Part shown: positions 54,001 through 64,000 of the stretch, piece after piece
How the letters are laid out: every line of letters begins with the position of its first letter
How positions within the stretch are numbered: the stretch's first letter is position 1
Source of the DNA: Escherichia coli
GTDB lineage: Bacteria; Pseudomonadota; Gammaproteobacteria; Enterobacterales; Enterobacteriaceae
Strand: one strand, 5' to 3'
Length of the DNA stretch: 64,000 nt
Assembly: GCF_050320075.1 (NCBI RefSeq)
Contig: NZ_CP190018.1
Made by a program: the position numbers

Positions 54001-57000
54001 AGAAGCTTATTAAATTCATTCAAATCCAATTTGTAAATATTTTTGGCAACATAAGCCTCAATTTTCAACTCAGCATCACAACATCCCTCTATGCAAGAAA
54101 TCACAAGTTGTTTTAATTCAGAATGTTGTAATAATATTTTTTCAGACGGTATTGCAGTTTTTCGTAAGGCTGACAATGATACATGACCAGTAGCTAAAAA
54201 GCTTCTTAATTGAAATTCAAAACAAAGGGAGTTTATAATACCAAGCAAACTAAAGAGCGAATCTTGCGAACCACTTTTATAATAGACCACCCCTAATGAA
54301 TTCCCTGCCAAAGAGTTAGGAGGTATTATCGTTGCAATCATTCGCCTTTTTTGACTCGGGCGTGAAATGTCACGCCATGCAATCCTTACGAAATTAGAAT
54401 TGGATAGAACCTTATCAATTTTTTTCGTTATTCTTAAGCTCTTCTCATTATGAAAATTATACCTCCCAATCATTTTTCCTTTAATGAATAATAATCCGCC
54501 GCCACTTTTTTGTGTCCAGTCACTACTACCAGTTTCATCTATTTCTCTTCCTGCCCATATCTCTCCATTTTTTTCCAGACTACCCCATGTTGGGTATCCC
54601 TCTTGCAGCTTTCTTAACAAATGAACGGCATGAACACCTTGAGATACCGGAATGCTAAGATATTGAGAATCTATACTAGACAAATCAAAAAAACCTAGTG
54701 ATTTAATATTTAAGTTTTTATCATACACACTAAGTTGAATATTATCATTAAGGGATTCACCTTTATTAAAAATAAAAGAACATGAAGAAACATCAGCACC
54801 GCCGAATAATTTAGCCTCAGCTGGATAATAATTTATGCAATCAATCCTCCCTGAATTAAAAAACTTTTCACGTAATATGTACGATTGTTCATCTGCGAAA
54901 AAAGATGCAGGCATAACTATAGCTACCAATCCATTTTTATTACATATTTCTAAGCTAAGTTCTGCACCAACACGTGAAAGATTAGTCCCCCACCCAGCAA
55001 ATTTACGCTTCGGCTGAGAATATGGCAATACTCTTGACAAATAATCATCAAACTCACGAAGAGAGTCTATATACATCGATTTCATAGATGGTTCAAAAAA
55101 ATCGAGCTCTCTAGAATCTGGTTTTATATTCTCCCAAGGCGGATTGGTTATAACACAATCAAAATAATCAACATATTTTTTAAATTCATAAAAAACATCA
55201 CTATTTTTTATAGTAATGTTAATATTTGCACCTGCTAACTTAAGTTCAGACAACGCATTTTTAGCATAAGTGAGGCCTGTATTTTCTATATCGAACAGAT
55301 AAACATTCCACTCTACATCTGGAAAACCATTTATCATCCATTGTTTAATAAGCAATGTAATAAGTCGACCATCCCCTGAAAATGGATCTGCGACATTATA
55401 ACTTTTTTTATCACAGGAATTTATCAATGGTAATAACTTCTCTATCATCAAAAGAGCTATTTTTGGATCTGTATAGTATTTACCTGTCGCTTTTTTAGTG
55501 AATTTTGTTGTCTCGTCCAAGGACAGTGAATTAATTAAATGGATATGTTTCATGTAAAATATCTCTTCCATTAATAATATGGATTATATCATTTAACTTG
55601 TGAACACTCAACAATAACTGTACATAAAAACAGTCATTAAAGATTTCCCCTAGAGTGAGCATCGCTATAAAAATTTAAATTAATTTTATCCTGCTCCGAA
55701 AGAAACAGTTATCATTTATTCCATAAAGAATAACTTGCTTTATAATCACTTTAAATATCGATATCAATTTTAATACTATGGTTACTTACCATATCAATAA
55801 ATAGCTTAACCCGTTATCTCGATACCCCTTAAGAACCCCTTCCGCAACTGCAACATAATCTACGCTCATCCACATGCCTGGCTTTAACTGTTCCTGATAT
55901 AAGTTGACAGTTTTCTGTCCGTAAAACGGTTGATGAACTTCATCGGGCGTTTTGTATTTCAATGCCAAATGTGACCGCTCATGGTTATAAATTGCCACGA
56001 ATTCTTTTACCATTTACCGGCCCTACGTCAGCTCTGCAGGACGCGAGAGTAAAAACTCATTTTCAGGATTCCGTTTATCCACTCAGCCTGCGCATTCTGG
56101 TGGCAGTTATAACCATTAGTCATTGAACAGGTTATTGATAAATAATTAAAAAACTCAGCTTTCTGGCTCGCCTGCTCAAGCTGTTCTTCAAGTTCCCTGA
56201 TTCTTTGCTCGGGTGTCAGCGGGACAGTCGCCAGAGCCACAGGCAGTCTCCTCTTTACCTGGTCAGGAAGTCCGGGGCTCCAGTCAAGCCGGCCATATTT
56301 ACGCAACCAGACAAGAACGGTGGAGCGCCCCTGAATGCCATAACTGCAGCCGGCCTGTTTATAAGTCATCTCGCCTTTTTCAACCTTCTCAACAACGGCT
56401 ATTTTAAAGGATAGAGGATAATCACGTTGAGTGCGTTTGAACCCAGACATCATCACGTTCTCCGGGTTTAAGTCAGGAACGTGTCATAGCTATTCAGGAC
56501 GGGTCACCGACACAAAAAAAGTCGCCCTTGAGCGACTCGATTTGCATACGGTATGGTGCGAAGGCCGGACTCGAACATGTGACTTAACCTCATGATTTAA
56601 AATTGTTAATAATAAACAATATCATCTTATACCAACACAGATACCAACACGAAAAATCACTGGTTTTCGGCATCGAACCAGGACAATCAGCTCCTGATTG
56701 AGATACCGAGCTCTGTTACTCGTCATCTTCCTCGACAGGCTTCATTGCATCAAGTAGTACTCGCACCATCGCGATAGAACCAATCCGGATAAAAGCATCT
56801 TCTCCATCTATATCTGTTAACTGATATCGCTCACTTGATGCCGGATAAGTGTGTCGATTTGCAGCTGTGTACTCTTTTGTACAGCCAGAATGTGGCTGAC
56901 TGAGGTGGAGCAGATAATGTCCCCGTTGACCACTTCCGGACGGGAGGCTGTGATTTCAGACATAATTGATATTCCTTTTTGCAGATAAATGAAAACGCCA

Positions 57001-63000: not shown

Positions 63001-64000
63001 GACGTCAAAACTTTTCCCGATGGTTTCACCAAAAGTCTGTTGTGCGTGTTTCTGGGCCTGTTCAGAGCGGTTTTCTCCCCGGATATGTGAATACACCGCG
63101 CTGGTTGCCTGTGGTGGCAGTGCGTGGATCATCAGCGACACAAACGCCGGAAGGTTCCAGCCGACAGGTGCAGCAACGGAGAGTACCGGAAATGATGAAG
63201 GGAACAGGGTTGCCACCCGGGCTGTCACCGTCGCCAGTGAGAGCGCCTGCTGACGGGACGGGCATTTTTCTGTGGCATTCCATTCTTCAGCAGGAAACAC
63301 GCGATCGGCATGGCTGAGAACAAACAGAAAACGCGAGGGATCTGCGCCTTCATTCAGTAAAAACTGATGCATGGTAATGTCGGCGGCATACGCGCGTTCA
63401 TCTGCCCGCAGGATCCAGATAATCAAATCCACTTCCGGCAGTAACTGACGGTAAAGCGCCCGGTATTCCTGATCATGTTGCGGCGTCTCTCCAATGCCGG
63501 GCAGATCGACCAGCGTCATTCTGCGTTCACCGATCTGCAGGGTAAGACGATGAGCCTGGCGGGTGCAGCCGTTCAGGGGATGTGTGGCACAGATATGGGA
63601 CTGAAAAATAGCATTACACAGGCTACTTTTGCCGGTGCCGGATTTACCCATAATGCCAATCACGGGTTCGTAATGAATAACGCTGTGGAGATGTTCAAGA
63701 ATTTTCTGACGAATTTCTTCAGGAAGAAACGTCAGATATGATTTCACTTGTGCGGAGAGGGAAGAATGGCTGAATGACATACCGGTATCCTGTTGATTTC
63801 ACTGAACCGGATCACACTAATCCGGTTTATCATTCAGGTAATATGGACGTGAAAAATGATGGAATGTCTGAATTACGGATATTATTGTTAAAGTGTAATG
63901 GAGTATGAAGTGAGTTTTTCAGAACGGGAACTAATGACATACTGCGGTTTCAGGAGATGAGAGGATGACCGGACGTAAAAACAAATGCGTCAGAAAAAAT

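Follow-up and report, generated by a model that had tools for sequence, protein, structure and literature searches.

A conserved CbtA/CbeA and antirestriction gene module next to the distal direct repeat of a probable CP4-type island in leuX of Escherichia coli

Positions 56554–63780 of the Escherichia coli sequence analyzed here (contig NZ_CP190018.1, assembly GCF_050320075.1; "the window" is the whole stretch of 64,000 nt) very probably represent the conserved module that borders the distal direct repeat of a CP4-type island of about 76 kb; this island was put into the leuX tRNA-Leu gene by a P4-family tyrosine integrase. Computation directly shows which genes make up the module, that they are intact, that they sit against the direct repeat and that they are homologous to the gene strings of the K-12 elements CP4-44, CP4-57 and CP4-6. 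The module is real, intact and already known: experiments have been done on the K-12 versions, and its placement in tRNA-integrated islands has been published. Gene annotation is that of RefSeq for NZ_CP123240.1 (E. coli YZLc1-3 chromosome), which is 100% identical over the window. Family assignments are from Pfam, NCBIfam, PHROGs and PADLOC profile searches, and the K-12 comparisons are tblastn searches against CP4-44, CP4-57 and CP4-6.

The region encodes 12 intact genes, in the order GTPase, HTH-WYL regulator, putatively secreted 225 aa protein, DUF905, DUF932, ArdB/KlcA-type antirestriction protein, RadC/JAB protein, DUF987, CbeA, CbtA, DUF5983 (YeeW) and DUF957. All of these, and the other features located below, are on the minus strand. 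A preliminary description of this DNA listed eleven same-strand genes. The strand and the order of the genes it named are confirmed by Pfam matches far above the cut-off and by K-12 tblastn identities of 60%–98% for the core genes, which are not due to chance; the count was too low, and the 225 aa protein, DUF905 and DUF957 were missing from the list.

The GTPase (positions 62896–63780, 294 aa) is annotated as a GTPase, is of the YeeP/YfjP/YkfA kind and matches the Pfam MMR_HSR1 (E-value = 2.6e-15) and Dynamin_N (7.5e-11) profiles. Its sequence displays the P-loop GKSGTGKS and the motif DLPG, and it has 32%–36% identity to YeeP, YfjP and YkfA of K-12. The adjacent YfjR-like regulator (62013–62693, 226 aa) has Pfam HTH_11 and WYL domains, matches the PADLOC WYL model (2.6e-18) and is 43% identical to YfjR. 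The 225 aa protein at positions 61188–61865, annotated as hypothetical (WP_001097301.1), has a signal-peptide-like N-terminus and gives no match in Pfam, NCBIfam, PHROGs or PADLOC. NCBIfam also assigns nothing to the DUF957 protein, the DUF5983 protein, the regulator or an upstream 376 aa protein. A PADLOC search of the module yields only WYL models of a generic kind plus, for the GTPase, a weak match to the LeoBC model in which none of the individual domains is significant; the module is not a recognised defence system.

The DUF905 protein (60949–61158, 69 aa, TTG start; Pfam 5.7e-31) is YkfF-like, with 64% identity to YkfF of CP4-6. Between its gene and the DUF932 gene there is a strong terminator-like hairpin (60899–60928) with a 13-bp stem that includes nine G-C pairs and is followed by a T tail. 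The DUF932 protein (60041–60859, 272 aa; 1.1e-52) is 74%–75% identical to YfjQ and YafZ. The antirestriction protein (59464–59949, 161 aa), of the YfjX(LfgA)/YafX kind, covers positions 1–92 of the 92-position Antirestrict profile (PF03230, 6.9e-37) and displays 65%–66% identity to YfjX and YafX.

The JAMM domain is recognised by the motif H-x-H-x7-S-x2-D. In the translated RadC-like JAB/JAMM protein (58973–59449, 158 aa; Pfam RadC, PF04002, 5.1e-45) this metal-binding motif is intact, with the sequence HNHPSGEVTPSKAD. Identity is 98% to YeeS, 83% to YkfG and 78% to YfjY/LfgB. The DUF987 protein that follows (58665–58886, 73 aa; 2.7e-39) is YeeT-like and 93% identical to YeeT.

The toxin-antitoxin pair was described from the start as apparently intact, and alignment bears this out: CbtA and CbeA align end to end with the K-12 proteins without frameshifts. 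CbeA (YeeU), a type IV antitoxin of 122 aa with a GTG start (58217–58585; CbeA_antitoxin, PF06154, 1.1e-54), is 92% identical to its K-12 counterpart along the full 122 residues. The CbtA (YeeV) toxin (57750–58127, 125 aa) covers positions 1–112 of the 112-position CbtA_toxin profile (PF06755, 3.1e-63) and aligns with K-12 CbtA at 86% identity, free of gaps and stops. cbeA lies directly upstream of cbtA on the same strand with an 89-nt gap between them. The GTG start of cbeA and the ATG start of cbtA are those of K-12, and the upstream sequence is nearly identical to that of K-12. Residue F65, on which FtsZ binding depends in CbtA, YpjF and YkfI (PMC5624674), is invariant in the alignment. Position 15 of CbtA is Cys, as in YpjF and YkfI. 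The R15C change in K-12 CbtA weakens MreB binding, and YpjF, which has C15 by nature, still binds MreB (PMC5624674). Because of the Cys at this position, the MreB arm of CbtA action is less certain.

The gene for the DUF5983 protein (57265–57753, 162 aa) overlaps the cbtA stop codon by 4 nt. This is the full-length form of the protein, with matches to DUF5983_N (1.8e-31) and DUF5983 (6.2e-21); K-12 YeeW is a 64 aa truncation of it, and identity to YeeW is 63% over residues 5–64. The last intact gene of the module encodes the DUF957 protein (57048–57245, 65 aa, WP_001327226.1), which is 70% identical to remnant sequence that follows yeeW in CP4-44 and has no match in the Pfam copy used. An 11-bp stem hairpin resembling an intrinsic terminator (56994–57020) is found just past DUF957, and the gap between DUF957 and the end of the island contains two pseudogene fragments in the RefSeq annotation, the remains of a hypothetical gene and of an HTH regulator, both truncated (56716–56963).

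The terminator-like hairpins suggest that the module has at least two transcription units, one that stops after DUF905 and one that spans DUF932 to DUF957. A scan for promoter consensus sequences gave nine matches, with 7.4 expected from shuffled sequence; as this is not above expectation, no promoter is claimed. Rfam shows no match at E ≤ 0.1 in positions 55000–64000, and thus no known small RNA such as IsrC of CP4-44. The palindrome ACCT-N2-4-AGGT (MqsA type), which has been reported to serve the lfgA operon of CP4-57 as its operator, is absent from the module.

The distal boundary of the island is an attR-type direct repeat at positions 56554–56576, a 23-nt stretch copied from the leuX 3′ end. 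Limits of 56577–63780 had been proposed earlier for the module; the upper limit is the start codon of the GTPase gene, and the lower one adjoins the outer edge of the leuX 3′-end copy, which is the island boundary. The repeat sequence, GTTCGAGTCCGGCCTTCG-CACCA, equals the P4 att core and the 3′ end of leuX except that one G is missing. Because of this 1-nt deletion, ungapped att-core searches that allowed up to three mismatches did not pick up the distal repeat. An exact search with a 17-mer of the att core over about 148 kb of chromosome did, and found two copies only, in leuX and in the distal repeat. A terminator-like hairpin directly past the repeat (56519–56538), found by hairpin scan and in the sequence, looks like the displaced terminator of the tRNA gene. 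No tRNA gene was found by a tRNA scan of the window; leuX is at positions 4508294–4508378 of NZ_CP123240.1, and it and the integrase gene are located about 44 kb past the right edge of the window. This copy may no longer be able to excise, given the 1-nt deletion in the distal repeat and the large number of insertion sequences and pseudogenes throughout the island.

The integrase (421 aa) adjoins leuX and displays Arm-DNA-bind_3, Phage_int_M and Phage_integrase domains. It has 59% identity to P4 Int over 411 aa, the 20-nt att core is identical between P4 and the island (P4 attP core, GAGTCCGGCCTTCGGCACCA), and leuX is the integration site of P4. The backbone of the island includes an AlpA/Vis-like gene and two YagK/YfjJ HUH proteins (Pfam), and small PHROG families cover most of the module proteins. 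These properties would fit a decayed true P4-like satellite prophage in which the module is phage "moron" cargo, but that origin is highly improbable. In a tblastn search of the 76-kb island with all 13 P4 proteins, only Int and, weakly, Vis are matched (E ≤ 1e-3); alpha primase-helicase, sid, psu, delta, epsilon, cI, gop and beta give no match. P4 itself carries none of the genes of the module, the module is absent from real phage genomes, no phage structural genes are present in the island, and the intact relatives in W5-6 and pRHB40-C01_2 (see below) also lack annotated P4 replication and capsid-size genes. A true P4 satellite was therefore rejected. The CP4-type assignment of the preliminary description is supported; its term "cryptic prophage" is a historical label only, with just the integrase, the att core and the AlpA/Vis-like protein matching P4.

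The DUF932, DUF905 and ArdB-type genes are plasmid-like, which would be in keeping with an integrative conjugative element. However, no relaxase, coupling protein or mating-pair-formation gene is annotated in RefSeq between leuX and the distal repeat. An element of this type was rejected on that ground and is exceedingly unlikely. The initial assignment to a CP4-like element and not to a conjugative one is upheld: neither a relaxase nor type IV secretion genes are annotated in the 76-kb island, and its P4-family integrase beside leuX is accompanied by AlpA-like and YagK/YfjJ genes. As cargo the island carries Dnd/Dpt defence genes together with autotransporters and numerous insertion sequences.

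The features of a CP4-type island are found together at this locus: the conserved gene string, in which DUF932 and the regulator are swapped relative to CP4-57 and CP4-6; at the other end, a P4-family integrase adjoining a tRNA gene; and, next to the module, a flanking repeat of the tRNA 3′ end. The K-12 paralogues and three homologous regions have been described (PMC5371832). CP4-44 (yeeP ... yeeS-yeeT-cbeA-cbtA-yeeW) shares the gene order RadC, DUF987, CbeA, CbtA, with 98%, 93%, 92% and 86% identity, respectively. It differs in having a pseudogene yeeP, inserted flu and yeeR, no DUF932 or antirestriction genes and a truncated yeeW of 64 aa; the present island has intact versions of the GTPase, DUF932, antirestriction and DUF5983 genes and also carries DUF957. 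CP4-57 (yfjP-yfjQ-yfjR ... yfjX/lfgA-yfjY/lfgB-ypjJ-yfjZ-ypjF) and CP4-6 (ykfA-yafZ ... yafX-ykfG-ykfH-yafW-ykfI) contain the same families in nearly the same string, and here also the module is at the end opposite a P4-family integrase that is beside a tRNA or tmRNA gene. Identities are 60%–83% for DUF932, antirestriction, RadC, DUF987, CbeA and CbtA and 35%–43% for the GTPase and the regulator. CP4-57 and CP4-6 differ from the island in having the order GTPase-DUF932-regulator, whereas the regulator is ahead of DUF932 in the island; in addition, their toxins are shorter (109–113 aa) and the DUF5983 and DUF957 genes are absent. The earlier statement that the K-12 CP4 string is reproduced holds, with this one difference in order, and the GTPase and regulator have only 32%–36% and 43% identity, respectively, to their K-12 counterparts.

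Of 5426 complete E. coli genomes, 5170 (about 95%) contain related modules, typically in three copies; the variant described here is carried by roughly 1577 genomes. Strain W5-6 has the same module with the same end point, followed by a second integrase gene and a Hachiman system, and this arrangement is a tandem island array. In pRHB40-C01_2, a 62-kb circular record, a 92.8%-identical module is followed by a pheV 3′-end core and an integrase gene, the layout expected for an excised island of the same class. A 2025 preprint (PMC12458937, section 11) describes a "moron" module of tRNA-integrated, defence-carrying mobile elements at the same position. In those elements RadC/ArdB antirestriction, CbtA/CbeA and DUF genes adjoin one direct repeat opposite the integrase; the integrase, excisionase, HUH endonucleases, repeats of 16–20 nt at the tRNA 3′ end and Dnd-type cargo are all found in the present island too. 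There is no difference of substance, although the preprint leans to phage-satellite behaviour and the database counts tie several module genes to conjugative plasmids.

Outside E. coli chromosomes, recognisable module genes are mainly on conjugative plasmids and are rare in phage genomes. DNA-level matches to the DUF932 gene occur in at least 5000 plasmid records, of which 4253 are conjugative, and an ArdB/KlcA-type homologue is encoded in at least 5000 plasmid records, 3932 of them conjugative. Among 50,697 phage records, DUF932 is present in 27 (the organisms listed are mostly phages of ~350 kb), and 52 encode the antirestriction protein; CbtA occurs in a single unannotated record of 3.2 kb. 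In an IncFIA plasmid, homologues with 62% identity to the DUF932 protein and 56% to the DUF905 protein are encoded in the leading region among ssb, psiB, hok and parB-like genes, the DUF932 homologue beside oriT/traM and the DUF905 homologue beside ssb; a toxin-antitoxin system is present in both plasmid and island. These data raise the possibility that the module is the island counterpart of a conjugative-plasmid leading region, i.e. an early-expressed anti-defence and establishment cassette that is possibly not phage-derived. On this view, conjugative mobilisation with entry as single-stranded DNA, and not packaging in phage particles, would be the way in which CP4-type islands spread. In the excised circle, anti-restriction, DUF932, DUF905 and toxin-antitoxin genes would then be just upstream of attP and int, and CP4-type tRNA islands, including carriers of Dnd/Dpt, would hitch-hike on conjugation with the module aiding survival on entry.

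Several observations make this origin rather doubtful. The island has no annotated relaxase, oriT or type IV secretion genes. Long hairpins that could act as single-strand promoters were not found, inverted repeats being only 15–20 nt, and Rfam gave no match. The plasmid carries ssb, psiB, a parB-like gene and hok, but RadC, DUF987, CbeA/CbtA and DUF5983 are not seen in the leading region stretch examined. The HUH genes of the island backbone are inovirus Gp2-like and are read as phage-satellite-like in the preprint (PMC12458937), and gene sharing could stem from exchange among mobile elements and not from a common transfer route. The preferred interpretation is still that of a CP4-type island module of the kind found in K-12.

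By analogy with the K-12 homologues, the cassette taken together most probably serves to establish and retain the island. CbtA of K-12 acts as a toxin by binding FtsZ and MreB (PMC5624674); the island CbtA would block division and elongation in the same way, and CbeA would counteract it in the manner of a type IV antitoxin. The ArdB/KlcA-type protein would blunt type I restriction. In CP4-57, LfgB is a RadC-like protease and yfjXY-ypjJ-yfjZF form an operon (PMC10846083); the RadC-like JAMM protein of the island would similarly be a protease. The WYL regulator and the GTPase would control or assist these functions. Anti-restriction would thus help the island to establish in a new host and toxin-antitoxin addiction would keep it there, with Dnd/Dpt, autotransporter and other genes riding along as cargo.

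The module and its repeat are a landmark that fixes the distal end of the 76-kb Dnd/Dpt-carrying island and splits it from an older leuX-associated segment that contains McrBC, a type IIS restriction-modification system and yjh and sgc genes. As a discovery the module matters little, being an ordinary and very common cassette. It does bear on how these common islands move; the database counts point to conjugative plasmids over phages as the wider home of several of its genes.

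The window matches the chromosome of E. coli YZLc1-3 (NZ_CP123240.1) at 100% identity, its first nucleotide falling at record position 4375570. Twelve intact genes lie on the minus strand at window positions 57048–63780. In order, these encode a GTPase (62896–63780), an HTH-WYL regulator (62013–62693), a 225-aa protein that begins with a signal-peptide-like sequence (61188–61865), DUF905 (60949–61158) and DUF932 (60041–60859) proteins, an ArdB/KlcA-type antirestriction protein (59464–59949), a RadC-like JAB protein with an intact H-x-H-x7-S-x2-D motif (58973–59449), a DUF987 protein (58665–58886), CbeA (58217–58585), CbtA (57750–58127), a full-length DUF5983 (YeeW-like) protein (57265–57753) and a DUF957 protein (57048–57245). 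Pfam matches in the module are unambiguous; for the 225-aa protein, Pfam, NCBIfam, PHROGs and PADLOC gave no match, and K-12 CP4-44, CP4-57 and CP4-6 have no counterpart. The preliminary description counted eleven genes. Annotation and Pfam matches agree with the genes it named, their order and their common strand, however one gene was missed in the count and the 225-aa, DUF905 and DUF957 proteins were left out of the list.

Terminator-like hairpins at 60899–60928 and 56994–57020 suggest two transcription units, one predicted to end after DUF905 and the other to span DUF932 to DUF957. The 202-nt gap between the GTPase and WYL regulator genes contains a 15-nt inverted repeat (62755–62769 and 62869–62883, 93% complementary, 99 nt between arms), which may act as an operator. 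Downstream of the module genes are two pseudogene fragments (56716–56963) and, beyond these, 23 nt that repeat the 3′ end of leuX (56554–56576).

leuX is at record positions 4508294–4508378 with a 421-aa integrase alongside. Within the approximately 148 kb of chromosome searched, the 17-nt core TTCGAGTCCGGCCTTCG is found only in leuX and at window positions 56559–56575; thus the island is about 76 kb long, with the module forming the end nearest the repeat. The distal repeat differs from the leuX 3′ end by deletion of one G. The left part of the window contains fim, nan, yjh and sgc genes, which are positioned near leuX in K-12. Genes carried on the island include those of Dnd and Dpt phosphorothioation defence as well as sodC, two autotransporter genes, one for an Mrr-like endonuclease and one of the H-NS family. 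An AlpA-like gene and two YagK/YfjJ (HUH, inovirus Gp2-like) genes are also present, together with numerous insertion sequences and pseudogenes. A complete DndBCDE phosphorothioation system, accompanied by DptFGH restriction genes, makes up the main cargo and is located outside the window at record positions 4488641–4503493 (18642–33494 of L003, a segment of this record). Between this system and the leuX integrase are an integrase fragment and the genes for an outer-membrane protein and a phosphoethanolamine transferase. No relaxase or type IV secretion gene is present among the annotated features of the island, and assignment of the genes to a conjugative element is therefore not borne out.

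Strain W5-6 displays the module at approximately 100% identity and with the same end point, directly followed by a second integrase and then a Hachiman system. Thus the repeat marks a genuine att boundary in an array of tandem islands. IS3-family transposase fragments (55786–56456) are found where W5-6 has the intact second integrase and Hachiman system; in the strain studied, the integrase of the adjacent island in the tandem leuX array has apparently been lost. Other strains have sequence in common only from about window position 56505 onward. Past the IS3 fragments, just outside the island repeat, a low-GC block at 47532–55571 (31–43% versus about 50% elsewhere) encodes McrB/McrC-family proteins and a type IIS restriction-modification system with an Alw26I/Eco31I/Esp3I-family endonuclease, a C5-cytosine methyltransferase and an N6-adenine methyltransferase. 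The block has the appearance of a distinct defence cluster that was acquired independently. A complete IS66-family element, ISCro1 (tnpA, tnpB, transposase), at 39463–42078 is flanked by a GRP-family sugar transporter gene and a fuculose-phosphate aldolase, mtnA and mtnK cluster.

The island integrase and P4 Int share 59% identity over 411 residues, and the P4 attP core, GAGTCCGGCCTTCGGCACCA, is the same as the leuX 3′ end and the island repeat. Among the other twelve P4 proteins the sole match is that of Vis, which is weakly similar to the AlpA-like gene product; tblastn gave no match for alpha, sid, psu, delta, epsilon or cI in the 76-kb island. As judged by these comparisons, the island and P4 have the integration machinery in common and nothing else. 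Thus the term “cryptic prophage” in the preliminary description should be taken as a label and not as a result.

Comparison of the twelve proteins with the annotated MG1655 CP4-44, CP4-57 and CP4-6 regions (tblastn) upheld the proposed homology. The RadC-like, DUF987, CbeA and CbtA proteins are 98, 93, 92 and 86% identical to YeeS, YeeT, CbeA and CbtA of CP4-44, respectively. Counterparts of the DUF932, antirestriction, RadC, DUF987, antitoxin and toxin proteins in CP4-57 and CP4-6 are 60–83% identical. The GTPase (32–36%) and regulator (43%) are far more distant from their K-12 counterparts, and the regulator precedes DUF932 whereas K-12 has DUF932 first. The five-gene core at 57750–59949 is identical in make-up to the CP4-57 operon yfjXY-ypjJ-yfjZF, which is reportedly MqsA-regulated and whose YfjY/LfgB is reportedly a protease (PMC10846083).

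The toxin-antitoxin pair is intact, as had been suggested: CbtA and CbeA align end-to-end with the K-12 proteins, with no stops or frameshifts. As in K-12, cbeA starts with GTG. The 25-nt stretch preceding cbtA matches K-12 exactly, and that preceding cbeA does so nearly. Experimental work on the three K-12 pairs has shown that the toxins bind FtsZ and MreB and that F65, conserved in the CbtA analyzed here, is needed for FtsZ binding in all three (PMC5624674). Position 15 is Cys, like YpjF and YkfI, whereas K-12 CbtA has Arg. Homologous K-12 regions and cross-neutralisation have been described (PMC5371832).

The region is matched in 5170 of 5426 complete E. coli genomes, at a median of three places per genome, and 1577 cover at least 80% of it. 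Of 50,697 phage records searched, one only, an unannotated 3.2-kb record, contains module DNA or CbtA protein; DUF932 is found in 27 (organisms listed are mostly phages of about 350 kb) and the antirestriction protein in 52. The single record, OR844783.1 (“Escherichia phage ECO111 5-P”, 3,236 bp), is 91% identical to window positions of about 56840–59880 and is the only one in the collection with a CbtA homologue. A possible origin is chromosomal island DNA that entered a phage preparation by contamination or packaging. At least 5000 plasmid records match the DUF932 gene (4253 conjugative) and at least 5000 encode an ArdB/KlcA-type homologue (3932 conjugative). On an IncFIA plasmid, a DUF932 homologue (62% identical) adjoins oriT/traM, and a DUF905 homologue (56% identical) is beside ssb, psiB and hok in the leading region. 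The plasmid versus phage record counts favour the cassette being a leading-region analogue, with CP4-type islands travelling by conjugation, but the island has no annotated oriT or relaxase, the module shows no long hairpins such as serve as single-strand promoters and no Rfam match, and we consider the proposal unlikely.

The record pRHB40-C01_2 (PLSDB record CP057032.1; region of interest 27100–36234 of L010, our handle for this record) is listed as a 62,375-bp circular “non-mobilizable plasmid” and has no replicon or relaxase typing. It contains the whole island backbone and the module at 92.8% identity, with an exact 23-nt pheV 3′ end (attP-like core, L010 34854–34876) after the module, followed by an integrase; in circular form the module is just upstream of attP and int. 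This is the look expected of an excised island of the same class, and pRHB40-C01_2 is probably such a circle caught in assembly.

The composition, intactness, position and homology of the module are shown directly. It is very probably the conserved terminal module, with an intact type IV toxin-antitoxin pair, of a CP4-type leuX island; apart from minor corrections, the analysis supports the proposed CP4-type interpretation. Modules of this kind have been described before. A preprint from 2025 reports tRNA-integrated elements that have integrase, excisionase, HUH endonucleases, 16–20-nt repeats and cargo including Dnd, in which RadC/ArdB, CbtA/CbeA and DUF gene modules adjoin the repeat opposite the integrase (PMC12458937); the locus studied is an instance of these elements. 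Related to possible function, the antirestriction protein would shield incoming island DNA, and CbtA/CbeA would penalise island loss. The RadC-like protease, WYL regulator and GTPase would modulate these functions or host responses.
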